Assembly: GCA_038230355.1 (NCBI GenBank)
Contig: JBBRNK010000014.1
Span: 24,747 to 88,746 of the forward strand
Reading direction: 5' to 3'
DNA: 64,000 nucleotides
Source: Mycobacteriales bacterium
GTDB taxonomy: Bacteria; Actinomycetota; Actinomycetes; Mycobacteriales; SCTD01
The notes below the pieces were generated by a model. That model saw only the letters and a list, made by a program, of their open reading frames with translations. It did not search any database and had not been told where the DNA came from. Both the position numbers and the translations under genes were made by a program. Positions 3,994-61,000 of this stretch are shown here, piece after piece (position 1 is the first letter of the stretch; each line of letters begins with the position of its first letter).

Positions 3994-5036
3994 GCGCGCA
4001 GGGCCTCCAGGGTGGCCGCACGGATGCCGGCGGCCTGGCTGTGCACCACCTGGAAGGCGGCCGCCCGGAGCAGCCGCTGGGCCGGGTCGGCCAAGTCCAT
4101 GCCTTGCCCGCCACGGGCCGTCAGCAGGGCCGTGGCGGACTCGATGCCCAGCAGCAGGGCTTGCGCGCGCGCGGCGAGCCGCTCGTCGTTGCGCTCGTTG
4201 AACGGGGCGGTGTCGAGGAGGTCGTAAGCGGTGGCCCGGACCGCGAGGACCCGCTCCCTCAGCGCCGCCGCCGTCTCCGGGGAGCGGACCTCGAGCAGGT
4301 CCAGCGCCGCCAGCGCGATCCCGAAGGTCGACGGCTGCACGTTGGTGTTGGCGGAGGCGTCGACGGCGAAGAAGTCCTTGTACGGCAGGAGGTTCAGCAC
4401 CTGGGAGGCTTTCATCCGGAGCCCGTCGAACGCGAGCGCGTGGGTGGAGGTGCCCCCCATCGCGGCGAGGTCCAGCAGGCCGGTGCTGCGCAGGCCGGCG
4501 CCCTCGCGGGCGGGCACGAGGCCGAAGACGATCTCGTCGGTCTCACGAACGACGGCACCCACCACGAGCACGTCGACCAGGCCCCAGCCGGTGCACCACG
4601 GCTGGGTACCGGTCAGGACGTAGGCGTCACCGTCTCGCTCGGCGAAGATGCTCGGCTTGGGCGTGCGGACGTGGCTGTAGGAGACCCCTCCCTGCACCGC
4701 CCCGCTGACCAGGTCTGCAAGGTAGGTCTCCCGGAGCGCCTGGTTGACGGTGCTCGCGACCATCTTCAGGACCGGGCCGTGCTGGAACCACACGAACCAC
4801 AGGTCCGGGCTGGCCCCGGCCAGCAACTCGATGACGGCCCGTTGCTCGTCGGTGCCGGCGCCCCCGAGCTCGACCGGGGCGTAGGTGCCGTAGAGCCCCG
4901 CCTGCGCCAGCATCTCGGTGTCGGCGCGCGTGACCCCTTCCCGCTCCAGCCGGGCGGCGTCGCCGACGAGCGCCTCCCGGAGCTCGGTGGCGCGGGTGAG
5001 CAGTATCCCGGGGGCAGTGGTGGCTGTGAGTGTCAC
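3990..5036 (-). CDS. acyl-CoA (or acyl-ACP) dehydrogenase family protein
   Basis: 348 aa with ACAD-like layout (N-terminal helical region, WCTGWG mid-domain, C-terminal helical bundle). 4-nt overlap with the ligase gene. Shorter than classical ACADs, and I could not see the usual C-terminal catalytic Glu context. Confidence 0.7.
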   Translation of the reverse strand: MTLTATTAPGILLTRATELREALVGDAARLEREGVTRADTEMLAQAGLYGTYAPVELGGAGTDEQRAVIELLAGASPDLWFVWFQHGPVLKMVASTVNQALRETYLADLVSGAVQGGVSYSHVRTPKPSIFAERDGDAYVLTGTQPWCTGWGLVDVLVVGAVVRETDEIVFGLVPAREGAGLRSTGLLDLAAMGGTSTHALAFDGLRMKASQVLNLLPYKDFFAVDASANTNVQPSTFGIALAALDLLEVRSPETAAALRERVLAVRATAYDLLDTAPFNERNDERLAARAQALLLGIESATALLTARGGQGMDLADPAQRLLRAAAFQVVHSQAAGIRAATLEALRA

Positions 5037-5073
5037 CTCTATGACGGTAACCGCCTGCGACCGGACGGGCGCG

Positions 5074-6246
5074 TCAGGGGGCCAGGACGATCGAGCCGTT
5101 GTGCCCGCCGAACCCGAAGCTGTTGCTCACGGTCGGGCCCGGCTCCCACGACCGGGGCGCGAGGACGACGTCGACCTCGAGGGAGGGGTCGACCTCGGTC
5201 GTGCCCATCGTCGGCGGCAGCTCGCGGTGGTGGAACGACAACAGCACGGCCGCTGCCTCCAGGGCGCCGGCCGCGCCCAGTCCGTGGCCGGTCACACCCT
5301 TGATCGATGTGACGGGCACCGCGCCCGGACCGAAGACGGTGGCGACAGCCTGAGCCTCCGCCTGGTCGTTCAGTGGGGTCGAGGTGCCGTGGGCGTTGAC
5401 GTGCCGCACCTGGTCGGGGGTGAGGCCGGCGTCGTCGAGGGCCAGCCGCATGCAGGCGGCCGCCCCGACCCCACCGGGGCTGGGAGCGGTGATGTGGTGG
5501 GCGTCGCAGGTCGACGCGGTGCCGACGATCTCGCCGTACACGTGGGCACCCCTGGCGAGGGCCTGCTCGCGCTCTTCCAGCAGCAGCACGCCGGCCCCTT
5601 CGGACAGGCAGAAGCCGTCCCGGCCGGTGTCGAAGGGGCGGCTGAGACCGGTCTCGGACAGCGCGGTCATCTTGGTGAACGCCCCCACGGTCACGCCGTT
5701 GACCGAGGCCTCGGCACCGCCGGCGAGCACGACGTCGCAACGCCCGTCGAAAATCATCCGGGCACCGGCACCGACGCTGTGCGTGCCCGCCGCGCAGGCG
5801 GTCGTCAGCGTTTCGCACGGGCCACGCCACCCCAGGCGGAGGCTGACCGAAGCGGCGCCCGCGTTGGGCATCACCATCGGGATCGTGAACGGCGAGACGC
5901 GACCCGGCCCGCGCTCCGCCAGCACCCCGCACTGCACCTGGAACGTGTTGATCCCGCCGATCCCGGTCCCGAGGCTGACCCCGGCGCGGTCCGGGTCGAG
6001 GTCAGGAAGGCCGCCGGCGGTCGCCATCTCGGCGGCCGCGATCGCGAAGTGCGTGAAGCGGTCGTGGTGGCGCTGCTCCTTCGGCGACAGCCACTGGCTG
6101 GCATCGAAGTCGTCGATAGTCCGGACGCGCCGCTGCCCCGGCTCGGTCTGCAGGCCCTTCCAGAACGCTTCGAGGCCGATGCCGGCCGGTGACACGACCC
6201 CGATGCCGGTGACGACGACGCGACGCGGGGGCGGGTAGGCCTTCAC
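5074..6246 (-). CDS. beta-ketoacyl-ACP synthase, elongating KAS I/II (FabF/KasA-like) type
   Basis: 390 aa, GTG start. Cys-His-His triad contexts are present: TTACAAGTHS, NAHGTSTP, KGVTGHGLGAAG. Confidence 0.9.
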   Translation of the reverse strand: MKAYPPPRRVVVTGIGVVSPAGIGLEAFWKGLQTEPGQRRVRTIDDFDASQWLSPKEQRHHDRFTHFAIAAAEMATAGGLPDLDPDRAGVSLGTGIGGINTFQVQCGVLAERGPGRVSPFTIPMVMPNAGAASVSLRLGWRGPCETLTTACAAGTHSVGAGARMIFDGRCDVVLAGGAEASVNGVTVGAFTKMTALSETGLSRPFDTGRDGFCLSEGAGVLLLEEREQALARGAHVYGEIVGTASTCDAHHITAPSPGGVGAAACMRLALDDAGLTPDQVRHVNAHGTSTPLNDQAEAQAVATVFGPGAVPVTSIKGVTGHGLGAAGALEAAAVLLSFHHRELPPTMGTTEVDPSLEVDVVLAPRSWEPGPTVSNSFGFGGHNGSIVLAP

Positions 6247-22170: not shown

Positions 22171-23712
22171 CTAGGTCCGGGCTCGCAGGGCCTGCTTGTC
22201 GGTCTTCCCGACGCCGTTGCGGGGGAGCGACTCGACCAGCTCGACGACCTTGGGGGCGGCGTAGTCGGCCATCCCCTCGCGGACCCACGCCCGCACCTCG
22301 GCAGGGGTCACGGGCGCACGCACGACGAGGTAGGCCGCGATGACCTCTCCCCCCAGCGCGTCGGGGATGCCGACAACGGCCGCGTCCTCGATGAGGGGGT
22401 GCCGTCGGAGCAGCTCCTCGAGCTCTGCCGAGAACACCTTCGTGCCACCGCGGTTGATCATGTCCTTGCTGCGGTCGAGGACCGTCACGAAGCCGTGCTC
22501 GCAGACCCGGACGATGTCGCCGGTGTCGAACCACCCGTCGATGATCGCGGCGGCGGTGGCCTCCCCGTCCCCTGCGTAGCCGGTCGTCACCAACGAGCCA
22601 CGCAGCCACAGCTCACCCGCTTCGCCTTCCCTGCAGGGCTTCCCGCTCTCGTCGCGGACCTCGGCCTGCATGCAGTCCAGTGGCCGGCCGACCGTCCCGG
22701 CGTGCTCGGCGAAGTCCTCGTCGCGCAGGATGCAGCCCGGCGAGTGCGTCTCGGACAAGCCATAGACGTCGTGCAGGCGCACGCCCGGCAGGGCAACCCG
22801 GAGCCCGTCCTGCAGGTCCAAGGGGAACGGCGCACCCCCGGCAGCCACCCGTGACAACCGTGGCAGGTCATCCAGGCCGGCCCGCAGGGCGAGCCGCCAC
22901 CAGCTCGGCACGGCGTAGGCCCAGGTGACGCCCTCCCGCCGCAGCAGCTCGACGTACTCGCGCGGACTCTGCGAGTCGACGAGCACCAACCGCGCACCGG
23001 CGAGCATCGCCGGCAGCACGTGGGCATGCATCGCCGAGATGTAATACATCGGAAACAGCACGGCCGTGACGTCGTCCGGGCCGAGGGACAGCACCCGCTG
23101 GTAGCTCATCCCGGAGTGCACCGACGCGCGATGCACGACCTGCGACGCCTTCGGCCGCCCCGTCGTCCCCGACGTGAACACCACCTGGTACGTCGCGTCC
23201 TCGGCAAGCCCCGACGGGCCTTCGGCCCAGGACCGCTCGGGTGCCTCCATCAGGACCGCCGCGAGCGGCTCGGCGCCCGAGAGGTGGTCCAGGAAGGGCT
23301 TGGACGCCAGCGTCAGCCGGGTCTTCATGTGCTCGACCATGTAGGACCATTGCGGCGGCGCGAGGCGGGTGTTCAGGCCCACCATCACACAGCCCACGCG
23401 GGCGCAGGCAAGCAGCAGCACGGCGAGGTCGACGGTGTTGCCACTTGCTACTGCGACGGCGACGCCGGGCTCTAGACCCCTGGCACGCAGGGAGTCGGCG
23501 GCGCGCTCGACCCGGTCGGCGAACTGCCGCCAGCTCAGGTGAAGGTCCCCGTCGGTCCAGCCCGGGCGGTCACCGTGCAGGCGCACCGCCCGGTCCAGGG
23601 CGTCGACGACGGTCGCCGGCCGTCGGGCGTACGACAGGGCAGGTGCACCAAGCCACTGCTCGATGGCGACCGGGTCGCCGGGTCGGTCGTCGAGGTCGTG
23701 GAGCGCTGCCAT
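22171..23712 (-). CDS. AMP-dependent synthetase/ligase
   Basis: 513 aa. FTSGTTGRPKAS, YGLSET, GWFDTGD and a C-terminal GKTDK. Confidence 0.85.
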   Translation of the reverse strand: MAALHDLDDRPGDPVAIEQWLGAPALSYARRPATVVDALDRAVRLHGDRPGWTDGDLHLSWRQFADRVERAADSLRARGLEPGVAVAVASGNTVDLAVLLLACARVGCVMVGLNTRLAPPQWSYMVEHMKTRLTLASKPFLDHLSGAEPLAAVLMEAPERSWAEGPSGLAEDATYQVVFTSGTTGRPKASQVVHRASVHSGMSYQRVLSLGPDDVTAVLFPMYYISAMHAHVLPAMLAGARLVLVDSQSPREYVELLRREGVTWAYAVPSWWRLALRAGLDDLPRLSRVAAGGAPFPLDLQDGLRVALPGVRLHDVYGLSETHSPGCILRDEDFAEHAGTVGRPLDCMQAEVRDESGKPCREGEAGELWLRGSLVTTGYAGDGEATAAAIIDGWFDTGDIVRVCEHGFVTVLDRSKDMINRGGTKVFSAELEELLRRHPLIEDAAVVGIPDALGGEVIAAYLVVRAPVTPAEVRAWVREGMADYAAPKVVELVESLPRNGVGKTDKQALRART

Positions 23713-23763
23713 GGCCGGTCAGTCTGCCAGGTCGAGTCGGTCGTCGGTGGTGGCGACGGAGGG

Positions 23764-24180
23764 TCAGGTGACGACCAGGTCCGCCTTCATGTTGCCGTGG
23801 AAGTCACAGGTGATCGAATACTTGCCTGGCTTCGCGGGCGCGGTGAGGGTGGCGGTGGCGCCGGGTTGGACGACGAGGCCCGGCATGCCCTTGAGGGTGA
23901 CCGTGTGCGCGGTTCCGTCGGCGTTCTTGACCATGACGGTGCTGCCGGCCTTGACCGAGGAGGGCACGGTGTACATGAAGTTCTTGATGGTGAGCACGGC
24001 AGCCGAGGCGGTGGCGGGTGCCGTCGTCTCGGTTGCCGGTGCGCTGGTGGTGGCCGACGTCGGGGCCGAGGCCGGGCTGCTGGCCGTGGGTGTGGTGGCG
24101 GTCGTGGTGCCGGAGCACCCGGCCAGCACGGCGGTCGCGGCGAGGGGGAGCAGGAGCGAGCTGAGCTGACGGGGCGTCAT
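23764..24180 (-). CDS. cupredoxin (plastocyanin/azurin-like) lipoprotein
   Basis: 138 aa from ATG 24180. Lipobox AVLAGCSG, a Thr/Ser/Pro/Ala linker, then type-1 Cu ligand pattern AHTV...CDFHGNM. Confidence 0.8.
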   Translation of the reverse strand: MTPRQLSSLLLPLAATAVLAGCSGTTTATTPTASSPASAPTSATTSAPATETTAPATASAAVLTIKNFMYTVPSSVKAGSTVMVKNADGTAHTVTLKGMPGLVVQPGATATLTAPAKPGKYSITCDFHGNMKADLVVT

Positions 24181-24203
24181 GGGGGCCTTTCGTGGGGGGC
24201 AGG

Positions 24204-24887
24204 TCAGAGCAGGTGTGCGAAAGCGACCACGTTGTCGAGGTAGTGACCGGTCTTTCTGTCGAAGCCGCCGCCGCAGGTGATCAGCCGCAACTCGGCGCGC
24301 TGGGTGGTGTCGCCGTAGACCGCGCTCGTCGGGAAGCGGTCCTTGGGGTAACGGGCGACCTTGTCCACCATGAAGCGTGCAGTGCTGCCGTCGGCGCGCC
24401 CGACGGTAACCGTCGCCCCGGGCCGGAGCGCCCCGAGCTGGTAGAAGATGCCGGGCCCGTTGGTGCTGTCGACGTGCCCGGCGATGACCGCGGGCCCGAA
24501 CTGGCCGGGGGCCGGCCCGTCGACGTACCAGCCGGCCTTGCCGAAGTCTGTGGGTACCTGCAGGCTGCCGTCGGCCTGCTTGCCGAGGTTGACGAGCGTC
24601 TTGCTGTCCACACCGATCGAGGCGATGGCGATGCTGACCGGGCGCGACCGGCTCAGGGTCTTGGCCGAGAAGCCGATGGCGTCCCGGGTGGTCCCCGACG
24701 TGGGTGGCGTGCCGGGGGCGCTGGGACCGGATGTGCTGGACGAAGCCGCGACCGGCGGCTGCGGCGGACCGCCACTGGGTTGTAGCCCCACGATGACCGC
24801 GGTCGTGCCGGCGACCCCGAGCGTGACCGTCACGGCCGCCGCGGCAAGTACACCGCGGCGGCCGTGGGGGGTTGCGAGAGTGCTCAC
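24204..24887 (-). CDS. class F sortase
   Basis: 227 aa. N-terminal TM anchor, Pro/Ser linker, His context VIAGHVD, active-site LRLITCGG. Its GTG start shares 1 nt with the upstream CHRD gene's stop (TAGTG). Confidence 0.8.
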   Translation of the reverse strand: MSTLATPHGRRGVLAAAAVTVTLGVAGTTAVIVGLQPSGGPPQPPVAASSSTSGPSAPGTPPTSGTTRDAIGFSAKTLSRSRPVSIAIASIGVDSKTLVNLGKQADGSLQVPTDFGKAGWYVDGPAPGQFGPAVIAGHVDSTNGPGIFYQLGALRPGATVTVGRADGSTARFMVDKVARYPKDRFPTSAVYGDTTQRAELRLITCGGGFDRKTGHYLDNVVAFAHLL

Positions 24888-25624
24888 TAGCTCCGGGCGC
24901 GGCGGGCAGCGAAAGCGCCCGTGCCGGCTGCGGCGAGCAGGCCGATGCCACCAAGGGCGAGCAGGCCCTCGTTCTGCGTCGGGGCGGTGCCACCGGCACC
25001 AGTGCCGGCGCCACCGGACGGCGACGCGGACAGCACGCCGCAGATCGCCGGGTCAGTGGCGGACGCGGGCAGCGCCGGGTTCAGGTCGCTCTTGGCCTGC
25101 GCCTTGGCACCGGTGTAGGAGACGCCGTGCACGACGACCAGGGCCTGGCCCTTCTCGATGGCGGTAGCGATCTCGGGAGCAACCGTGACGCCGCCCCGCA
25201 TGTACTGAATGCTGGTGCCGGAACCGAAGCGGTCCACGGCCAGCCCGCTGGTCGGGCTGGTGTCACCGGTCTTGGTCAGCGACACGACGACGGCACCATA
25301 TGCCGGGCCGCCCTCGGTCGTGCTCAAGCGGCCGTCGCCGTCCTTCTCATCGGACACGGCGGGGCACTCGTGACGGGCATCGGCGCCGAAGTGGATGTGG
25401 GCAGCGTGCGGACCGGCCGCCAGGCCGGAGGCGGCCAGCGTGAACTCGATCTTGTTGCCGGTGACGGTGACCATCGCCGTGCCGCTGCCGTTGGAGCCGT
25501 TCACGACGACAGGTGTGAGGTTGGCGGTGGCACTGCCATCGGCCCACGCCGTGCCGACACCGACGAAGGGGAGAGAAAGGGGAAGGGCGAGGACGAGCGG
25601 GGCAAGTCTCATCGAGCGGCGCAT
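24887..25624 (-). CDS. secreted CHRD-domain protein with C-terminal hydrophobic/basic anchor
   Basis: Signal peptide ...GVGTAWA/DGS. CHRD-like GPHAAHIHFG. C-terminal GLLALGGIGLLAAAGTGAFAARRARS is a sorting-signal-like tail, but no LPXTG precedes it. Alternative start at 25612. Confidence 0.7.
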   Translation of the reverse strand: MRRSMRLAPLVLALPLSLPFVGVGTAWADGSATANLTPVVVNGSNGSGTAMVTVTGNKIEFTLAASGLAAGPHAAHIHFGADARHECPAVSDEKDGDGRLSTTEGGPAYGAVVVSLTKTGDTSPTSGLAVDRFGSGTSIQYMRGGVTVAPEIATAIEKGQALVVVHGVSYTGAKAQAKSDLNPALPASATDPAICGVLSASPSGGAGTGAGGTAPTQNEGLLALGGIGLLAAAGTGAFAARRARS

Positions 25625-25699
25625 CTGTGCTCCAAAGTCGTGACGTGACAGCCGCTTCAGGCGGCCGTCTGAGTAGTTCTTCGCACCTACCCCCTGTTG

Positions 25700-25727
25700 C
25701 GGTTCATAAGCGCGGATGTATGAACCG
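25700..25727. promoter_or_regulatory. AT-rich 9-10-9 inverted repeat CGGTTCATA-N10-TATGAACCG
   Basis: Read directly from the sequence. Lies between tRNA-Ser (3' end at 25771) and the CHRD start (25624) on the minus-strand transcription path. Could be a tRNA terminator hairpin or an operator. Confidence 0.3.
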
Positions 25728-25770
25728 TCATGAGTACGAGGGACGTCTGACCTCGACCGGGTAGGGAGAG

Positions 25771-25859
25771 CGGAGGGTGTGGGGTTCGAACCCACGAGAC
25801 GGGATCAACCGCCTGGCCGCTTTCAAGGCGGCTGCACTAGTCCACTATGCGAACCCTCC
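25771..25859 (-). tRNA. tRNA-Ser(UGA): tRNA-Ser, anticodon UGA
   Basis: Manual cloverleaf: acceptor GGAGGGT/ACCCTCC, D-arm GCAT/GTGC, anticodon stem GCCGC/GCGGC with loop CTTGAAA, long variable arm AGGCGG..CCGTCT, T-arm GTGGG-TTCGAAC-CCCAC, discriminator G. CCA is not encoded. Confidence 0.9.
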
Positions 25860-25968
25860 AGGCCCCTGACTCACACCGCTGCCCTCGAAGAAGGGGGCGG
25901 AGCGTTTAGGGGGTGAAGCAGGAGACTACGTTCCCGCGGCCTTCCGCCGGGCTCTGGGCACACGGCCG

Positions 25969-28900
25969 TCACTGGCTGCCGTGGCCCGGTCCACCGCTTC
26001 GGTCGACCGGCTGGGACAACGGCAGGGCGGGACCTACGTCGCCGACCCACCCGCGCTCGGGGTCCAGGCGCCACAGTTGCCCGTCCGCTGGGTCCACGAC
26101 CTGCAGGGCGACCCAATCCCCGAGGACGAGGCGAGCGAGATCGGGTTGGCGGGAGAGCACGGCATCGACCGTCGAGGGCGGTGCGCACACGATCGCCAGC
26201 AGGCGCACCGGATCGTGCTGCGGGAGCCCGGTCCAGCGGCCACCGTCGGGTGCGTGCGCGGAGACTGCCTGCCACGGCAGGCCGATGCGCAGATCGCCCC
26301 GGACCCCGGTCAGGACTCCGGACAGCGCATGCTCGGTGCCCTCGGCCCCGATCACGATGTTGTGGGTGGTTTTGTCCCCCGCCCCGAAGCGTTCCGGGTC
26401 GACGGTGGAGCACCAGTAGGCCGAGCTGATCCATTGCGCGACCACCAGCGGCCCGGCCATGAGCGTTTCCAGCAGGGTCCCGTCGGGGTCGATGTCGGGT
26501 CGGTAGGACTGCAGGAATACGCGGCCACCCAGGTCGCTGTCGACGGTCAAGGAGCGAGGCCCGATCACCATGGCAGCATTGCCGGCCAGGCCCCACTCGG
26601 GTCGGACCTGCGCCCAGTCACCGGCGCGCCGGTCGAGTTGTCGCCTGAGGCGAGCCGATGATGCCGTCGGGTCCGCCTGGGGCAGGTCCTTGGCGCGCTC
26701 TCGGGCAACGCCGTCGCCGGCAACCTTCAGGTCCCTGACCAGGTGGGCGAGGGTGGATTCGGCGGCCACGTCGACGTCGAGGATCGTGACGCTGTCCCGA
26801 GTGGTGTCGTGCAGCGCAGCGACGAACTGCGTGCCGCGCACGTCCATGCCCCGCACGAACAGGCCCGCAACGACGCGGGGGTCGGACAGGACCTGCACCA
26901 TCGCGCGTGCGCTCACGTCACCGGACCGTCCGCCGCAGGCGCCACAGTCGTACGCCGCAAGGTGGGGGTTGTTGGTCGCGGCGCCACCGTGGCCGCACAG
27001 GACCACCAAGGGCGCCGGCTCGACCAACCCGGTGCTGCTCAGGAAGGCAGCGGCAAGGTCGACGAGTTCGGTGACACCGAAGTTTTCTGCTGACACCGCG
27101 CCGCCGTCGGGCCGGGGGGAGGAGAGGGAGTCCGGCGCCGTGATGACGTCAAGGGGGCCGCGGGTCGGCGCGCCTACAGCGTGTCGAAGGTCGGCGGCCC
27201 GGTGCGACCACCAGGCGGGCGCGGCGGTGCGCAGGGCGGCCAGCGGCCCCAGGACCCACCCGGACCCCTCCGCCAGGGTGAACGGCGTGAAGGGTCGAGC
27301 TTCCATGCCGTGCACGGCGTCGAAGGCCTCCGTGGTCGACCACGACCATCGACGCGGTGCCGCCGTCTCGCGAACGGTGCGGTCCGGGCGCAGGAGCACC
27401 GGGCACCGCTCGGAGACCGCCCCGGTGGGTGAGACGTGGCGCAGGGGCAGCCCAAAGAACCCGGCCGCGCCATAGGTCTCCCACGGTCCGGTCACCTCGA
27501 GCTGGCGGCGCAGCCGCTCGGAGCGAACGTCGATGCAGAGCACGACCTGGGCGTCGGGACCGCCGGGCGCTCGCGACGACACCCCGATGCCACCCCCACC
27601 GCCGGCAAGCTCTGCAGCTCGGGCCTGCACCCCCCGGACAAGGGGACGCCGCACAGCGCTCTCCCACACCTCCAGCCGAAGGCGTTCCACGCCGTACGAG
27701 ACGACCGTCGCGATCAGGGTCGTGAGCTCGTCGACGTCGCGCGCGTCGAGCCGCACGCCATCAACTTCGAGCTCGCGCAGGACGGCTGCCAGGTCTGGGC
27801 CCGGTCCAGGGTCGGCGGCGGCGGCGGCGGGACCTCGCGCAGGGTGGGTGAGCACGTCCAGCAGCCGCACCGACACGAGGTCGGCGTAGGCGTCCGCCCT
27901 CGCCCGGTCGCCCTGTTCCGCGATCACGCCGGGCAGGGCGACGCGTTGACGCAGCCTCCAGGCGACGTGCGCCGCCCACCCGGCACCCTCGGTGAGCAGC
28001 TGACCCAGCACCACCATCTCGGGTTCCCCGGACGGGTCGAGCGCCTCGAGCATGACCGCCACCGCGTCAACGGGATCGGCGGGCAGGGCTGTCGCGAGGT
28101 CCCGGGCACCGGTAACCCCGAGGCCGGCATCGAGGGCCGCGTCTGCTCGGGCGGCGGCCCAGACCCCGCCCGGCGCGGTCGGCCAGGCCGCGTCCCCGTA
28201 GACCCGGGCGAGCAGCAGGTCCGCGTACGCCGACGGCACACGTCGACTTTGCCTGCGGGGCCAGCCGTCGTGCAGCAGAACGGCGCGAACCACGTCCACT
28301 CGAGCGACCTTGCCACACAGGGGGGCACGTGGGTCGAGGAACTGCGCGCATCCCTGCAGAAGCGCCTCGTCGTCGATCCGCCCGGCCGACAGCGCGCGGC
28401 CGAACAGGTCTGCACCCGGGCCCGTGGCATTGCCCCAGACCCGTGCGGCCAGCGCCAGCGCGTCGTGGAACTCCAGGCACTCCAACGACGCGAGAGGGTT
28501 GGAGGCGACGAACGACTCGAGCGGCCAGGCCGGAGACACGATGTCGCCGGCTGCAAGCAGCAGGGCGCGGGTGCGCGCAGCCTGTTCGACTGACGGCCCG
28601 CTGGCCACCGCCGTCACAAGGTCAGGGTTGACCACCGGGGCCGACACCACCACCTGGCGCAGCGTCCGGGGGGGTAGGGACGTGGCCGCGACCGCGTCGA
28701 CGATCCAGCGGACGCCACCGGAGCGAGCTCGGCGGTCCAGCCACCAGAACGCAGCGCCGGCGGTGACCAGGAACAGCACGAGCAGGCTGACCTTCACAGC
28801 TCCGGTCTGGCCCCACGAGGGGGTGGACGAGGCCAACAGCCCGTCGGTGGCGGTGGTCAGCGCGCGCAGCCCCAGCAGGTAGCCCACCACGGCGAGCACC

Positions 28901-30099
28901 GTCACGGCTGTGGCTGCTGCATGGGCGCGCGTCCTGAGACGGTGTGCACCAAGCAGTGCGGAGCCCAACGCGGTCGCCGCCAGGATCACCGGAAGTGCGG
29001 CGGCCGGACCCACCAAGAGCGGCGAGCCCCACGGACCAGGAACCACTGCAGCGGCGGCGACCACGCCCACGGCTGCCGCCACACCCACGATGGTGCGCCG
29101 ACCACCCACGAGCGGAGGCGGAGCGACCCCGCGCCGGGCCCGCTCGACCGCGCCACCCGCACCGAGGAACAGCGACGCCTTCCACATCCCGTGGCCGACG
29201 AGGTGGGCCAGGGCGGCTGCCGGCAGGCCGAGCGCGACCTGCACGCCGAGATAGCCCATCTGTGCTGTCGTCGATCCGGCCAGTCTGCCTTTGAGGTCGG
29301 GGCGGGTCCGGACCTGCGCGGTACCCATCAGCGCAGTCGCCACCGCCAGCCCCAGAAGCACACCACGGGCTGTCGCCGAGGGCGCGAGCACCGGCCACAG
29401 CAGCAACCCGAGCACCCCGACCCCGTTGACCAGTCCTGCATGCAGCAGTGCACTCACCGGAGAGGGAGCCTCGGCGGTCTCCGGCAGCCATCGATGGGCC
29501 GGCACGAGGGCGCTGCGCGCGACACCAGCGGCCACCACGAGCAAGGCGAGCACGGTCACCGTGGAGGCAGGTGCAGAGGAGACCGCGGCAGGTAGGCCGT
29601 CCAGCCGCAGTGTGTGCAGCTGAACCCCTGTCACCACCACCGCGGCCCACAGCGCGGCATCACCCACCAGCAGCCGGGAGGTCACGATGAGGGACGAGCG
29701 GCGGGCGTCCACGGTGCCCGTGTGGCCGACCAGCGCCGCCACTGCCAGCCCGCCCACCGTCCAACCCAGCGCGAGCTGCACCAGGCTCGGCGCCACGACC
29801 GCCGAGACCAGGGCGACGACCCCGACCACCTCGAGGGCGGCGAACCGGGCCAGACGGGGCTGTCCTACGAGGTTGCGGGCCGCATACGCGGCGACAACCG
29901 CACCGATCCCCGAGACGAGGACCAGCAGGAGCCAGGAGACCAGGCCACCGACCACGCCGAACGGCGACGTGCCGAGACGCCCCAGGTCCAGCAGGACCGG
30001 CGTCCAGGCGAAGGGATGGACGACGGCCACGGGCAGTAGCACGAGGACGCCGGCCAGCAGGGCCACCAGCAGGTTCCGCGCGAAGCGAAGCAGTAACAT
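25969..30099 (-). CDS. dabBA: fused DabB-DabA inorganic-carbon transporter homolog (NuoL/MrpA-like proton-conducting module + DUF2309 module in one ORF)
   Basis: Uninterrupted 1376 codons from ATG 30099. The N-terminal ~470 aa carry HRWLPETAEAPSPVSALLHAG and HLVGHGMWKASLFLGAG (NuoL-like). The C-terminal ~880 aa carry SPAWPLESFVASNPL, VLCIDVRSERLRR, LCGHGGAATNNPHLAAYDCGACGG and WAQVRPEWGL (DUF2309/DabA hallmarks). The domain junction is near nt 28630. Confidence 0.85.
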   Translation of the reverse strand: MLLLRFARNLLVALLAGVLVLLPVAVVHPFAWTPVLLDLGRLGTSPFGVVGGLVSWLLLVLVSGIGAVVAAYAARNLVGQPRLARFAALEVVGVVALVSAVVAPSLVQLALGWTVGGLAVAALVGHTGTVDARRSSLIVTSRLLVGDAALWAAVVVTGVQLHTLRLDGLPAAVSSAPASTVTVLALLVVAAGVARSALVPAHRWLPETAEAPSPVSALLHAGLVNGVGVLGLLLWPVLAPSATARGVLLGLAVATALMGTAQVRTRPDLKGRLAGSTTAQMGYLGVQVALGLPAAALAHLVGHGMWKASLFLGAGGAVERARRGVAPPPLVGGRRTIVGVAAAVGVVAAAAVVPGPWGSPLLVGPAAALPVILAATALGSALLGAHRLRTRAHAAATAVTVLAVVGYLLGLRALTTATDGLLASSTPSWGQTGAVKVSLLVLFLVTAGAAFWWLDRRARSGGVRWIVDAVAATSLPPRTLRQVVVSAPVVNPDLVTAVASGPSVEQAARTRALLLAAGDIVSPAWPLESFVASNPLASLECLEFHDALALAARVWGNATGPGADLFGRALSAGRIDDEALLQGCAQFLDPRAPLCGKVARVDVVRAVLLHDGWPRRQSRRVPSAYADLLLARVYGDAAWPTAPGGVWAAARADAALDAGLGVTGARDLATALPADPVDAVAVMLEALDPSGEPEMVVLGQLLTEGAGWAAHVAWRLRQRVALPGVIAEQGDRARADAYADLVSVRLLDVLTHPARGPAAAAADPGPGPDLAAVLRELEVDGVRLDARDVDELTTLIATVVSYGVERLRLEVWESAVRRPLVRGVQARAAELAGGGGGIGVSSRAPGGPDAQVVLCIDVRSERLRRQLEVTGPWETYGAAGFFGLPLRHVSPTGAVSERCPVLLRPDRTVRETAAPRRWSWSTTEAFDAVHGMEARPFTPFTLAEGSGWVLGPLAALRTAAPAWWSHRAADLRHAVGAPTRGPLDVITAPDSLSSPRPDGGAVSAENFGVTELVDLAAAFLSSTGLVEPAPLVVLCGHGGAATNNPHLAAYDCGACGGRSGDVSARAMVQVLSDPRVVAGLFVRGMDVRGTQFVAALHDTTRDSVTILDVDVAAESTLAHLVRDLKVAGDGVARERAKDLPQADPTASSARLRRQLDRRAGDWAQVRPEWGLAGNAAMVIGPRSLTVDSDLGGRVFLQSYRPDIDPDGTLLETLMAGPLVVAQWISSAYWCSTVDPERFGAGDKTTHNIVIGAEGTEHALSGVLTGVRGDLRIGLPWQAVSAHAPDGGRWTGLPQHDPVRLLAIVCAPPSTVDAVLSRQPDLARLVLGDWVALQVVDPADGQLWRLDPERGWVGDVGPALPLSQPVDRSGGPGHGSQ

Positions 30100-30107
30100 A
30101 CGAACCA

Positions 30108-30121
30108 CAATACACGTATTG
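30108..30121. promoter_or_regulatory. perfect 6-2-6 palindrome CAATAC-AC-GTATTG in the dabBA/wHTH divergent intergenic region
   Basis: Read directly in an unusually AT-rich stretch. It overlaps a minus-strand TATTGT -10-like hexamer (30107..30112) that ends 7 nt before the dabBA ATG. Confidence 0.4.
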
Positions 30122-30178
30122 CAATTCAAGTGTCTGGGATCTGGCTCGATCGGTCATGATGAAGGGGTGAACAACAAC

Positions 30179-55077: not shown

Positions 55078-58000
55078 TCAGGACGGTCGGCGGCGGCGGC
55101 CGGCGAGCAGCAGGAGCAGGCCCACGCCGAACAGGCTGAGCGCCCACTCGCCCTGCAGATGCACGTCCGCACCGGTGAGCGGCAGGCCGCCACCGGGGTT
55201 GCCACCGTGCCCCCCGGGGTTGCCACCCTTGCTCGGGGTGCCGGGAGCGCCATTGGGGTTGTCCCCGCCACCCTTGATGCCGGTGCCTGTCCCAGCGCCC
55301 TTGACGGTCACCGACACCGTGGCGGTGCTGGTGTGGCCGTGGCCGTCACTGATCGTGTAGGTGAACGCGTCAGCCCCGGCGAAGCCGGCATCGGGTGTGT
55401 AGGTGCAGACACCTTCAAGGGTGCAGGTCACCGTGCCGTGCGCAGGGTCGGTGGTCCTGACCACACTCAGCGGGTCACCGTCGGGGTCGGTGTCGTTGTC
55501 GGTCACCGTGATCGTCACCGGCGTCGAGGGCTGCGCGGTGACGCGGTCCGGGACGGCCGTCGGGGGCCGGTTGGTGACGGTGAGGCTGACCGTGGTGGTC
55601 GCCGTACCGCCGTTGCCGTCCGAGACGGTGTAGGTGAAGGAGTCAGGACCGGCGTAGCCGTCGTTCGGGGTGTAGCTGCACACCCCGGCGCCGGTGCAGG
55701 TGACCGTGCCGTGCTGTGGCTGCGTGTACGCCGTGACCGTCAGAGGGTTGCCCTCGACGTCGGTGTCGTTGGCCAGGACGGAGACCGCTACCGGTACGCC
55801 GGTCGTGGTGGTGCCCTTGTCGGCCTTCGCGATGGGGGCGTCGTTGACGGGCGTCACGGTGAGCGTGACGGTCGCTGTGGCAGTGCCGCCCTTGCCGTCC
55901 GACACCGTGTAGGTGAAGGAGTCGGGCCCGTTGTAGTTCGTGGCGGGCGTGTAGGTGCAGATACCGGCCGCTGGGGCGGTGGTGCAGGTAACCGTCCCAT
56001 GCGTCGGCTGGGTGTACGACGTGACGGTCAGCGGGTCGCCGTTCGGGTCGGTGTCGTTGCCCAGGACGTCGATCGCCAGGGGCGTGTCCTCGAGCGTCGT
56101 GCCGCTGTCCGGGTTGGCGACCGGCACCCCGTTTGCCGCAGAGACGGTCAGGTCGACCGTCGCGGTGTCGAAGCCGCCGTTGCCGTCGGACACCGTGTAG
56201 GTGAAGGAGTCCGGTCCGCTGTACGCCGGGTCCGGGGTGTAGGTGCAGGACCCGGCGCCGGTGCAGCTGACCGTGCCGTGCGTCGGCTGCGTGTACGACG
56301 CGACCGTCAGCGGGTTGCCGTTGGGGTCGGTGTCGTTGCCCAGGACCCCGAAGGACGTCGCGACACCCGCGACGGCCACGCTGTCATTCGTCGCGACCGG
56401 CGGGGAGTTGATCGGCGCGACGACCGTGAAGGTCACGGTGGTCGTGGCGGTGCCGCCCCTGCCGTCGGAGACGGTGACCGTCACGGTGCTGGTGCCTGGG
56501 GTGGTCGCCGTACCGGAGAAGGTGCCGTCCGGGTTGAGCGTCACGCCGGCCGGCAACGTGCCCGTCGTGACCGCGAAGGTCAGCGGGTCGCCGTTGGGGT
56601 CGGAAGCGGACAGCGGGGTCGGGGTAGCTCCGACCGGCACGCTCTGCGACGTGTTGCCCGTGCTGCCGTCGAAGGCCGGTGGGGCGTTCTGCACGGTCAC
56701 GGAGACCGTGCCGACTGCGGTGTTGCCCGTGCCGTCGGAGACCGTGTAGGTGTAGCTGTCGGCCCCGGCGTAGCCCGGGTCGGGCGTGTAGGTGCACGCC
56801 GTCGCCGTGCAGCTGACGATGCCATGGGTCGGGGCGGTGTGACCGACGACCGACAGGGTGTTGCCCGCGTCCGGGTCGGTGTCGTTGGCGAGCACCTGGG
56901 TCGTCACGGCCGTGCCCGTGGGCGTCGTCGCGGTGTCGTTCACCGCGATGGGGGGGCTGCCCGGCGCGACGACGGCGGTGACCGTGATCACGAGGGTGGT
57001 GCTGGCGGTGCCACCCTTCCCGTCGCTGACCGTGATCACGACGGTCAGCGGGCCGCCGGCGGTGGTCGCCGTCCCGGAGAAGGTGCCGTCCGGGTTGAGG
57101 GTCAGGCCCGGCGGCAGGCTGCCACTGGTGACCGTGTAGACGAGCGGGTCACCGTTGGGGTCGGTCGCCGTCACCGGGAGCGGGGTGGTACCGACCTGGA
57201 TGGTCTGCGCCGTGTTGTTGCTCGTCGGGTCGAAGACCGGCGGGTTGTTGGGCGCCGCACTGACGGTGATCCGCACCGTGCCGGTGTCGGTCAGCCCGCG
57301 GCCGTCGGAGACGACGTAGGTGTAGCTGTCCGGTCCGGTGTAGCCGGGGTCGGACGTGTAGGTGCATGTCGGCGCAGGGTGCCCGACGGTCACCGTGTTG
57401 TCGCAGCTCACGGTGCCGTTCGCGGGCTGGGTCACCGATTGGACGGTCAGCGGGTCGCTGTCCGGGTCGGTGTCGTTGCCGAGAACCGTTGTGCTGACCG
57501 GCTGGCCTGAGGTGGCCGCGGCCGTGTCGTCAGCCGCGACGGGGGCGCGGTCCGGCGGCGGCGTGACCGTGATGGTCAGTGTCGTCGTGTCGGTGCCGCC
57601 GTTGCCGTCGCTCGCGGTGATGGTCACCGTGAAGGTGCCGGCGGTCGTCGCCGTACCGGAGAAGGTGCCGTCCGGGTTGAGGGTCACCCCCGGCGGCAGG
57701 GTGCCGTTCGTGACCGCGAAGGTGACGGTCTGGCCCGGGTCCGGGTCGGTGGCCGTCACCGCGACCGGGGTGGCTCCGACCCCGATGGTCTGCGCCGTGT
57801 TGCCGCTGGCCGAGGTGAACGCCGGCGGGTTGTTCGGGCTGACGGTGAGCACCAGCGTCGTGGTGTCGGTGCCGCCCTTACCGTCGGCCACGGTCACCGT
57901 GACCGTGTAGGTGCCCGAGGTCGTCGCCGTACCGGAGAAGGTCCCGTCCGGGTTGAGGGTCAGGCCCGGTGGCAGGCTTCCGCTGGCGACCGTGAAGCTC

Positions 58001-61000
58001 AGCGGGTCACCGTTGGCGTCCGTGGCGGTCAGCGCGACCGGCGTGGTGCCGAGGCCGACGGTCTGGGCGTCGTTGGTGGAGTCGGTCGTGAAGGCCGGGG
58101 CGGTGTTGCTGACGGTGACGTTGACGGTGCCGGTCGACGACAGGCCCGTCCCGGCGGTGATCACATAGGTGAAGCTGTCCGGCCCGGCGTAGCCCGTGGT
58201 GGGCGTGTAGGTGCAGGACGTGGTCGTACAGGTGGCCGTGCCGTGCGCCGGTGTCCCGACGGACGTGAGGGTGATCGGGGTGCCACTCGGGTCGGTGTCG
58301 TTGACCCTCGGGTCGAAGGTGATGACGCCGATCGTGGTGATCGCGTCGGTGTTGGCGACCGGCGGGCCGGCCGTCGAGACCTTGATGACCAGCGTGCTGG
58401 TGTCGGTGCCCCCGCGGCCGTCGGCGACCGTGACGGTGACGGTGTAGGTGCCCGAGGTGGTTGCCGTACCGGAGAAGGTGCCGTCCGCGTTGAGCGTGAT
58501 GCCCGGAGGCAGCGTCCCGCCGGTGGCGCTGTAGGTCAGCGGGTCACCGTTGGCGTCGGTCGCGGTGAGGGCTGCCGGGGTGCCGCCGACACCGATGGTC
58601 TGCGTGGTGTTGCCGGGCGCCGCGGTGAAGGCCGGCGGGGCGTTCGGGACGGTGATGACCAACGTGGTGCTGTCGGTCCCACCCAGGCCGTCGCTGACGT
58701 CGATCGTCACGGTGTAGGTACCCGGGACGGTCGGCGAGCCGGTGAACGTGCCGTCCGGGTTGAGCGTGACGCCCGCCGGGAGGCTGCCGCCAGTGAGCGT
58801 GTAGCTCAGCGAGTCGTTGTTCGCGTCCGTCGCCACGACCGCCGTGACGGTCCCGCCCGCGGGCACGGTCTGCGTCGTGTTGCTGGCCGCCGAGGTGTAG
58901 GCCGGCGGGGCGTTCGGGGTGACCTGGTTGCCGAAGTCGGCGGTCGTGTAGATCTGCGCGGCAGCCAGGGTGACCGTCACGACCGTCGGGGTGGTCGCAC
59001 TGCGGCCGGCCGGGGTCGCGGCCGTCACCGTGTAGGTGCCGGCGGCAAGGCTGTCGAACCGGTAGGCCCCACTGGCGTCGGTGGTGGTCGTCGCGAGGAC
59101 CGTCGGGCCCTGGGTGAGGGTGACGGTGACGGTCGCGAGGCCGGGCTCACCCGCGTCCTGGACCCCGTTGCCGTTGACGTCGTCGAAGACGAGGTCACCG
59201 ATGCTCGCGACACCGAGGCCGAAGTCGACCCCCGTCCGCTGCTGGCCGGCGACCAGCGGGGTCCCGACGGTGGCCGCCGTCGTGGCGGTCGTGCCGGTCG
59301 GCAGCGTGACCGTCACGGTGTAGCTGCCTGCGGGCAGACCCGGGAACTGGTAGGTGCCGGCCGCATCCGTCGTGGCCGTGGTGAGAACGGTCGCGCCCTG
59401 CCTGAGGGTGACGGTCACGCCGGCCCGGCCTGGCTCGCCGGCCTGCTGGGTACCGGAGCCGTCACGGTCGTCATAGACCATGCCGGACAGTGCCGCGTCG
59501 GACCGCAGGATCCCGAAGTCGACGCCGGTGACGGCCTGGCTGGGCGCGACGACGCGGGTCAGGGTGACCGGGCTGGTGGCGACGTAGCCGGTCGGTGTCG
59601 TGACGGTGACGGTGTAGGTGCCGGCCGGGAGGCCGCTGAACGCATAGGCCCCACTGGCGTCGGTCGCCTGGGTCGCGACGGGGCTACCGCCTCGGCTCAG
59701 CGTGACGGTCCCGCCCGGGTAGGACGGCTCGCCCGCCTGCTGCACCCCGTCCTTGCTGGGGTCGTTGAAGACGGTGCCGGAGACCGACGCGTCAACCGGC
59801 TGGAAGCCGAAGGCCGGGCCGGTGACACCAGCTGTCGTGACCGTGACGGTGCCGGTGACCGGGGTGCTGGCAAGCGTGCCGGCCGGTGCGGTAGCCGTCA
59901 CGGTGTAGGTGCCGGCCGGCAGGTTGGCGAACGTGTAGGTCCCACTCGGGCCGGTGACGACTGTCGCGACCGTGGTGGCTCCCTGCGTGAGGGTCACGGT
60001 CACCCCCGCGAGGGCCGGGTCGACCGCTCCGTCATCGGTGCCGTTGCCGTTGACGTCAGAGAACACCGGGCCGGTGACCGCGCCGCTGGTGGTGCGGGCG
60101 CCGAAGTCGATGCCGGTGACGGCGGTGCTGACCGGCACGGTCACGGTGACCGGGTCGGGCGTGGTCGCCGTACTGCCGACCGGGACCACGAACGTCACGG
60201 TGTAGGTGCCCGGGGCGAGCGTCCCGAAGGAGTAGCTGCCGTCGGCCGCCGTGGTCGTGGCGGGCTTGCTCGTCGGGCCCCCGCTGAGCTGGACGGTGAC
60301 GCCGCCGAGGGCGGGCTCACCGGCGTTGCGGGTCTGGTCGGCGTTGGGGTCGCTGAAGACGGTGCCGGCCAGGGAGGAGTCGACCTGCTGCACGCCGAAG
60401 TCGAGCGTGTTGTCGGTCGTGCTCGCCGCGAGGGTCGTGGTCCGGCTGGCACCACCGGTGGTGGTCGTCGTCGCGCCGACGGGCACGGTGAGGGCCACCG
60501 TGTAGGTGCCGGCGGTCAGGCCGGTGAAGGAGTAGGTCCCGTCAGAGGCGGTCGTGGCGGTCGTGACCGTGGTGCCGCCCTTCGTCAGGGTGACCGTGAC
60601 GCCGCTGAGGCCGACCTCGCCGGTGTCCTGCGTACCGTTGCCGTTGGTGTCGGTGAAGACCGTGTCGCCCAGGACCGACGTGGCCGGGGCGAGCCCGAAG
60701 TCGTTGGTCGTGGAGGTCGGGGCGCCGGCGGTCAGGAGCGCGGTCCGGACGGCCGGCGTGCTGGCCGTCGTACCCGTCGGGACGGTGACCGTGACGGTGT
60801 AACTGCCCAGGGGCAGGCCGGTGAAGGAGTAGCTGCCGCCGGCGTCGGTCGTGGTCGTTCCGACGAACGCGCCGCCCCGGGTGAGCGTGACGGTGACGCC
60901 CGGGCGGTTCGGGTCAGCGCCGTTCTTGGCGCCGTCGGCGCCGAGGTCGGTGAAGGCGATCCCGCTGACGACGCCCGGGATCGGCTCGAGGCCGATGTCG

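Follow-up and report, generated by a model that had tools for sequence, protein, structure and literature searches.

A class F sortase coupled to a CHRD-domain protein in a Mycobacteriales bacterium: a probable dedicated substrate with a GVDTG-type sorting signal

Canonical sortase systems, such as those of classes A and E, are built around a housekeeping enzyme that serves many substrates, which are marked by a C-terminal LPXTG or LAXTG motif, a hydrophobic helix, and a basic tail. The substrates and roles of class F sortases have been called unknown in papers up to 2026. In Actinoplanes missouriensis, the proteins AMIS_11010 and AMIS_36440, encoded beside srtF1 and srtF4, have a signal peptide, a transmembrane (TM) segment, and a basic tail with "no pentapeptide motif"; their function is given as unknown, and the authors suspected that they were SrtF substrates and did not study them further (PMC13251363). 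The lack of a visible pentapeptide was the reason that these tail-bearing neighbours were passed over. Our search of a literature library for "GVDTG" returned only unrelated peptides and nothing on sortases, whereas the NCBIfam database already holds models for such a C-terminal signal (NF058571, GVDTG_CTERM) and for the enzyme (NF033748, class_F_sortase); that is, the sorting motif is curated in a database and unrecognised in the published literature. Here, we analysed a 64,000-nt stretch of DNA (the window) from contig JBBRNK010000014.1 of a Mycobacteriales bacterium (assembly GCA_038230355.1, positions 24,747–88,746), in which the genes for a CHRD-domain protein, a class F sortase, and a cupredoxin lipoprotein lie consecutively, head to tail, all on the minus strand. 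Sequence comparisons indicate that the adjacent sortase very probably has the CHRD protein as its dedicated substrate and recognises it through a non-LPXTG signal. A preliminary description of the locus had proposed a non-canonical motif. The view that the motif is an unrecognised one is not supported: two curated NCBIfam models match, so that systems of this kind are already known to the database, and the locus in the window is a further, ordinary member.

The C-terminus of the CHRD protein has a tripartite organisation, consisting of GAGTG (residues 205–209), a TM helix (220–240), and the basic tail RRARS (241–245). Residues 202–242 aligned end to end with the 44-position NF058571 model, with a score of 28.9 bits against a curated cut-off of 29 (E-value 1e-6), and all 58 sequences in an alignment of homologues matched the model at E ≤ 0.01, the best at 1.5e-10. 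In this alignment, P202, G205, G209, G211, and G212 were invariant, and G204 and T208 were at least 90% conserved. The motif consensus of the homologues was AP[AS]GG[AMV][AD]TG[AGL]GG, compared with PSGGAGTGAGG in the window protein, in which G207 replaces the A or D of most homologues. The residues after the motif (seven or more, including TAPTQNEG) varied freely. The pre-TM segment TAPTQNEGLL, which the preliminary description had taken for the recognition site, was rejected because its residues vary among the 120 homologues listed (of 850 found), the very outcome that the preliminary description had named as refuting; the conserved P-x-G-G-[AVM]-x-T-G-x-G-G sits further upstream. Among the same 120 homologues, the C-terminus was shared except in a few truncated entries. 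No LPXTG, LAXTG, or NPXTG was present in the last 60 residues of the CHRD protein. The string LPASATD (residues 185–191) was also ruled out as a degenerate LPXTG; it is invariant and lies within the folded domain (predicted local distance difference test score, pLDDT, about 90), 60 residues from the end. When the window was scanned in six frames with strict tail criteria, two open reading frames (ORFs) passed, and the CHRD gene was the sole one beside a sortase gene.

This signal resembles the canonical LPXTG and LAXTG signals in its motif ending in T-G, its hydrophobic helix and basic tail, and its partnership with a membrane-anchored Cys/His enzyme of the sortase fold. It differs from them in that the motif, P-x-G-G-[AV]-x-T-G-x-G-G, lacks Leu-Pro and in that the spacer between the motif and the TM helix is longer (a median of 11 residues from TG to TM across loci). 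By analogy with LPXT/G, cleavage is predicted between T208 and G209. The A. missouriensis proteins AMIS_11010 and AMIS_36440, compared here by description only, are like the CHRD protein in being neighbours of class F sortases with a signal peptide, a TM segment, and a basic tail.

The association of the motif with class F sortases extended far beyond CHRD proteins. A genome scan with a class F sortase alignment, limited to one genome per species, yielded 80 loci in named genomes (designated L002–L081), at 41–84% identity. They came mostly from Actinomycetota, including Frankiales, Dermatophilaceae, Cellulomonas, Amycolatopsis, Pseudonocardia, Streptosporangiaceae, and Acidimicrobiia among others, with a few from other phyla. 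Seventy-three of the 80 loci had enough upstream DNA to be evaluated, and the motif was sought as P.[GSA][GASN]..[TA]G within the last 80 amino acids (aa). An ORF with the motif ended at the sortase start in 59 of the 73 evaluable loci (81%), whereas the motif occurred in 125 of 5,673 other ORFs (2.2%). When variants were counted (T-to-A replacement, downstream or opposite-strand placement, and PANGVDTG), the number rose to about 66 of 73. Positions outside the selection imposed by the expression were also conserved, with A or V at +4 in 46 of 51 sequences and G at +9 in 45 of 51. The passengers bearing the motif were unrelated and belonged to at least five families: CHRD, DUF4397, Excalibur, von Willebrand factor A (VWA) plus SpaA-like, and small Ig-like proteins. 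Non-CHRD upstream proteins usually had this signal at their C-terminus (e.g., KPVGGVATGGGE, PSGGVDTGGR, PAGGAATGFGGT, and PRGGAATGLGGT, all with a TM segment and an RRR tail behind them), and several unrelated sortase-adjacent proteins exceeded the NF058571 cut-off.

The stop codon of the substrate gene and the start codon of the sortase gene overlapped by 1 or 4 nt (TGATG, GTGA, ATGA, or TTGA) in 35 of 58 pairs. Because the overlap recurs in this way, the TAGTG of the window, in which the two codons share base 24887, is regarded as a conserved sign of translational coupling. In sortase-anchored CHRD loci, the CHRD gene was directly upstream of the sortase gene in 17 of 17, with one pair split by a transposase ORF. 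That pair, the sole separated one, belongs to Pengzhenrongella phosphoraccumulans (L010), in which a 455-aa transposase-like ORF occupies positions 4614–5981 between the CHRD and sortase genes. Conversely, when loci were looked up from the CHRD protein, the sortase gene was directly downstream in three of three, and the flanking genes were otherwise unrelated; the CHRD–sortase pair is a self-contained cassette. The proposal in the preliminary description that the CHRD protein is a dedicated substrate with a non-canonical motif was supported for the substrate and for the non-LPXTG character of the signal, given the unrelated passengers upstream of class F sortases and these CHRD pairs, but not for the location of the motif. 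In two of the three CHRD-anchored loci, AhpC-TSA/thioredoxin-type genes lie within 5–6 kb (L082, 12862–13725; L083, 12646–14304), and one of the two also has a DsbD/CcdA-type gene; this proximity may be a coincidence.

Not every substrate carries the complete tail. Eight neighbours (in L013, L016, L020, L043, L049, L053, L071, and L073) end 3–8 residues past the motif (e.g., ...VRVHPVGGVATGGGL*), and because these eight lack a TM segment, the classical retention step is not universal. Their ORFs end at about positions 5600–5950 of each locus, and five of the eight overlap the sortase start codon. At least those in L016, L020, L049, and L071 have Excalibur-type Cys motifs, with Pfam confirmation for L020 only. 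The sortases of several loci with tail-less substrates have lipoprotein-like N-termini (LAAC, VAGC).

The sortase of the window exceeded the NF033748 cut-off (197.1 bits against 166) and matched the Pfam family Sortase (PF04203) with 71 bits. Its AlphaFold2 model (pLDDT 80, with the catalytic core mostly >88) is a confident sortase barrel, and a Foldseek search of the Protein Data Bank (PDB) retrieved sortases of classes A, C, D, and E at an E-value of about 1e-8 and a probability of 1.0, with 13–20% identity. The PDB contains no class F sortase structure, and a search of PDB sequences with the sortase profile gave nothing at E ≤ 0.01, the marginal hit being a sortase D (E = 0.27). H138 (AGHVDS) and C205 (LRLITC) were invariant in the sortase alignment; H138 aligned with "IAGHRN" of the sortase D structure 4d70, and the Cys motif aligned with "LTLITC" of SrtA in hhalign.

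Every sortase is said to share a His-Cys-Arg triad (PMC8225981; PMC13257024). In the sortase alignment, there was no conserved Arg past C205 that could correspond to the catalytic Arg of strand β8, and R197 of Staphylococcus aureus SrtA fell on the invariant N219 in a local hhalign alignment, which suggests that N219 is spatially equivalent to R197. At Cys+14, 136 of the 146 wider-family representatives have Asn, and so do nearly all of the 80 loci. Judging from these alignments, the "universal" triad appears to fail for the class F family, which differs from the canonical class A and E enzymes both in this Asn for Arg and in the coupling of one sortase gene to one substrate gene. Because the canonical Arg is missing, transpeptidase chemistry is not to be taken for granted. 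As a speculation, the invariant R201, located on the Cys strand, might compensate for it. The class F profile matched 15,062 cluster representatives. Among long members, P0266, P0267, P0280, P0288, P0322, P0346, P0355, and P0359 are 366–605 aa in length and have the class F domain in the C-terminal half, preceded by an unidentified N-terminal extension. The possibility that long proteins (330–605 aa) are substrate–sortase fusions was dropped for lack of a convincing sorting motif, the regular-expression matches in P0322 being within a low-complexity Pro/Ala/Gly repeat.

The passenger of the window was assigned to the CHRD family (PF07452) with 28.9 bits, above the Pfam gathering score of 24.1. 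Its signal peptide is kept among homologues and is a low-confidence, unstructured region of the structure model, whereas the core (residues 29–200) was modelled with a pLDDT of mostly 85–94. H73, H76, H78, E86, C87, H166, and C195 were invariant in the 58-sequence alignment, and H85 was at least 90% conserved. The best Foldseek match in the PDB was the Cu-only superoxide dismutase (SOD) SOD5 of Candida albicans (4n3t; E = 6e-5, target-normalised TM-score 0.59), and the top 50 matches consisted of SODs, domain II of CCS, and one SOD-fold protein (EA4), with TM-scores of 0.5–0.6 to the target. SOD5 of C. albicans is an extracellular copper protein that is covalently attached to the wall. The H-x-H-F-G-x-D, V-V-H, and C-G-V motifs occupy positions equivalent to those in the SODs, as seen in AHIH78FGAD against FHVH48EFGD, VVVH166G against LVVH120E, and AIC195GVL against LAC146GVI of SOD1. 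C87 lies nine residues past the second His, as does C57 of SOD1, and hhalign placed H76, H78, and C87 on H46, H48, and C57 of human SOD1 in a local, weak alignment (E = 0.11).

A copper site formed by H76, H78, and H166 plus H73 or H85 is probable, as is a C87–C195 disulfide, and copper binding by the domain is plausible. The CHRD domain is unlike SOD5 and the Cu,Zn SODs in that it gave no Pfam match to Sod_Cu (PF00080) at E ≤ 0.01, lacks the zinc-site ligands, and has Pro192 at the position of SOD1 Arg143. A search of PDB sequences with the CHRD profile also gave nothing at E ≤ 0.01. Because the electrostatic Arg of the SODs is missing, the CHRD protein is less likely to be a classical dismutase than a surface protein with a copper-binding or redox role, and dismutase activity is doubtful. 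In Phycicoccus sp. Soil802 (L006, 3054–3734, minus strand), a second, tail-less CHRD-like ORF lies beside the CHRD–sortase–cupredoxin cluster (E = 5e-32, profile positions 8–197).

The third gene of the cluster encodes a protein that matched Cupredoxin_1 (PF13473) with 41.2 bits against a cut-off of 27. It has a lipobox (L-A-G-C22), a long Thr/Pro/Ala/Ser-rich linker, and a domain at about residues 60–138 with the ligand pattern H92...C125-x2-H128-x2-M131, of which H92, C125, and H128 aligned with the copper-bound cupredoxin 4hcf. Six cupredoxin orthologues share both the lipobox and the set of ligands; the position and orientation of the gene vary. A cupredoxin was present in 6 of 17 CHRD loci and in none of the 61 other class F loci (Fisher p = 5e-5), and it is a specific yet optional partner of CHRD loci. 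It is predicted to donate either electrons or copper. The copper/redox module suggested in the preliminary description is consistent with the SOD-like fold and ligand motifs of the CHRD protein and with the CHRD-specific cupredoxin, but the cupredoxin occurs in only about a third of CHRD loci.

The sequences themselves show how the genes are arranged, that the motif is conserved, that it is associated exclusively with class F sortases across unrelated passengers, and that the genes are translationally coupled. We consider it likely, on balance, that the CHRD and sortase genes form a cassette of a substrate and its dedicated sortase of the class F/GVDTG type. The signal peptide would direct export of the CHRD protein, and the C-terminal TM helix and the Arg-rich tail would keep it in the membrane. 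The co-translated, membrane-anchored sortase, with H138 and C205, would recognise P-S-G-G-A-G-T-G-A-G-G, 12 residues outside the TM helix, and would cut after T208, as in LPXT/G. The SOD-fold domain would then be transferred to a cell-wall amine, presumably that of the lipid II stem peptide. That the protein ends up anchored to the wall, and that copper chemistry is involved, are each less certain than the private relationship between the sortase and its GVDTG-type substrate. It is a tentative and rather doubtful extension that a His-Cys-Asn class F (NF033748) lineage with a private, coupled substrate recognised through P-x-G-G-[AV]-x-T-G-x-G-G carries, as its cargo here, a wall-anchored Cu-only SOD-like protein that forms with the lipid-tethered cupredoxin an undescribed copper/redox module of Actinomycetota.

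Several observations weigh against the dedicated-substrate cassette and its presumed outcome. The window CHRD protein falls 0.1 bit under the curated NF058571 cut-off, eight motif-bearing substrates have neither a TM helix nor a basic tail, and the class F sortases examined here are without the canonical catalytic Arg. The "class F" sortase of Cutibacterium acnes, the sole one studied biochemically, was reported to use LPXTG (PMC8225981), and an A. missouriensis mutant missing all four class F sortases showed no phenotype (PMC13251363). As for copper, two thirds of the CHRD loci have no cupredoxin nearby, and the assignment of copper binding depends on modest TM-scores (0.5–0.6 to the target, with a root-mean-square deviation of about 7 Å), a weak hhalign alignment, and a domain with no Sod_Cu match.

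Some of these points would be expected if the class F enzyme were a processing or release protease, or if its acceptor were not peptidoglycan but a lipid, another protein, or water, so that the CHRD protein was shed or otherwise modified. The replacement of the β8 Arg by Asn nearly throughout the family, the substrates entirely without a TM tail, and the lack of a surface or morphology phenotype in A. missouriensis when all four srtF genes are deleted fit such a role. We nevertheless regard it as unlikely, in that the fold and the His/Cys pair match those of transpeptidase sortases and the full tripartite wall-anchoring signal is retained in most substrates. A further alternative, that the CHRD C-terminus is a plain membrane anchor behind a Gly-rich linker and that the sortase acts on LPXTG proteins, such as the adhesin encoded at 55078–63999, appears quite improbable. 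The window does contain that canonical LPLTG + TM + RRRR protein, the C. acnes enzyme reportedly accepts LPXTG, and the motif region is of low complexity (Gly/Ala-rich) in a genome with 72% GC. Against this, Pro, Thr, and Gly are fixed at set positions amid variable neighbours, the motif recurs across five or more unrelated families of passengers and is enriched in sortase-adjacent ORFs well above its background, the stop/start coupling is conserved, and the adhesin gene is unlinked, 30 kb away. It is still harder to believe that the tail is read by another sorting machine encoded elsewhere (of the rhombosortase, exosortase, or archaeosortase type) and that the adjacency of the sortase is coincidental. 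Several unrelated sorting systems do use tripartite tails composed of a motif, a TM helix, and basic residues, and the Gly-rich motif is reminiscent of GlyGly-CTERM. However, in Actinomycetota and a few other phyla such tails are encoded almost universally next to a class F sortase gene, with translational coupling, the flanks contain no recurrent gene for another sorting enzyme, and the motif terminates in T-G, as sortase signals do.

The features of the three genes are summarised in Table 1. The sequence observations made in the preliminary description hold in every detail: the shared nucleotide in TAGTG; the cupredoxin lipoprotein with its His/Cys/His/Met pattern (H92, C125, H128, and M131), whose ATG follows the sortase stop after a 23-nt gap (24181–24203); the signal peptide of the CHRD protein and its hydrophobic stretch followed by basic residues; and the lack of an LPXTG or LAXTG ahead of that tail.

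Table 1. Positions of the genes, protein regions, and junction of the CHRD–sortase–cupredoxin locus in the window
Feature	Position	Strand	Remarks
CHRD/SOD-fold secreted protein gene, predicted sortase substrate	24887–25624	-	245 aa + stop; coding 24890–25624, stop 24887–24889
Signal peptide, residues 1–28 (MRRSMRLAPLVLALPLSLPFVGVGTAWA, then DG)	25541–25624	-	Basic n-region, hydrophobic core, AWA-D site; cleavage site inferred
SOD-like β-sandwich (CHRD) domain, residues 29–200	25025–25540	-	Invariant His/Cys; Foldseek SOD matches
Sorting motif P202-S-G-G-A-G-T208-G209-A-G-G212 (GVDTG type)	24989–25021	-	NF058571 match and conservation; 12 residues before TM
CHRD protein stretch spanning the sorting motif			SASPSGGAGTGAGGTA
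Variable spacer, residues 213–219 (TAPTQNE)	24968–24988	-	Proposed as motif in the preliminary description; varies among homologues
C-terminal TM helix 220–240 and basic tail RRARS 241–245	24890–24967	-	Sequence; model helix 219–242; architecture conserved
TAGTG overlap, CHRD stop/sortase GTG start	24885–24889	-	Translational coupling; plus strand CACTA; TAG and GTG share base 24887
Class F sortase gene	24204–24887	-	227 aa + stop; coding 24207–24887, GTG start
N-terminal membrane anchor helix, residues 10–34	24786–24860	-	Model secondary structure and pLDDT; alignment
Pro/Ser/Thr-rich disordered linker, residues 35–80	24648–24785	-	Model; alignment
Sortase catalytic domain, residues 81–227	24207–24647	-	H138 24474–24476; C205 (LITC) 24273–24275; N219 24231–24233
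Cupredoxin lipoprotein gene	23764–24180	-	138 aa + stop; coding 23767–24180, stop 23764–23766

A scan of positions 23500–26000 for promoters and terminators gave nothing exceeding the shuffled expectation. The CHRD gene is immediately preceded by a tRNA-Ser(TGA) gene (25770–25859), likewise on the minus strand. A perfect 9-bp inverted repeat (CGGTTCATA-N10-TATGAACCG) is located at 25700–25727 of the window, 75–100 nt before the CHRD start codon. Only the identical contig L001 shares it; it was absent from the related loci checked, and for that reason no operator claim is made for it. The repeat may be an operator specific to the strain or the 3' hairpin of a tRNA. Further upstream, an ORF at 25969–30129 (minus strand) encodes a 1,386-aa fusion of a proton-antiporter-like membrane domain (Proton_antipo_M) and DabA (PF10070), which looks like a DabB–DabA inorganic-carbon transporter in a single polypeptide. 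The adhesin gene at 55078–63999 (minus strand) encodes a giant surface protein of >2,973 aa that extends past the window and contains Big_9, cadherin-like, and He_PIG repeats; its C-terminus has a canonical LPLTG followed by a TM segment and RRRRPS. No second sortase was detected within the window, and a housekeeping sortase whose gene lies elsewhere presumably serves this adhesin.

Actinomycetota are rich in class F sortases, and the comparative data presented here supply these enzymes with a candidate recognition motif, a predicted scissile bond (between T208 and G209 in the window protein), and a proposed rule of one enzyme for one substrate. A sortase with such a new specificity would also be a potential protein-ligation tool orthogonal to the LPXTG enzymes.

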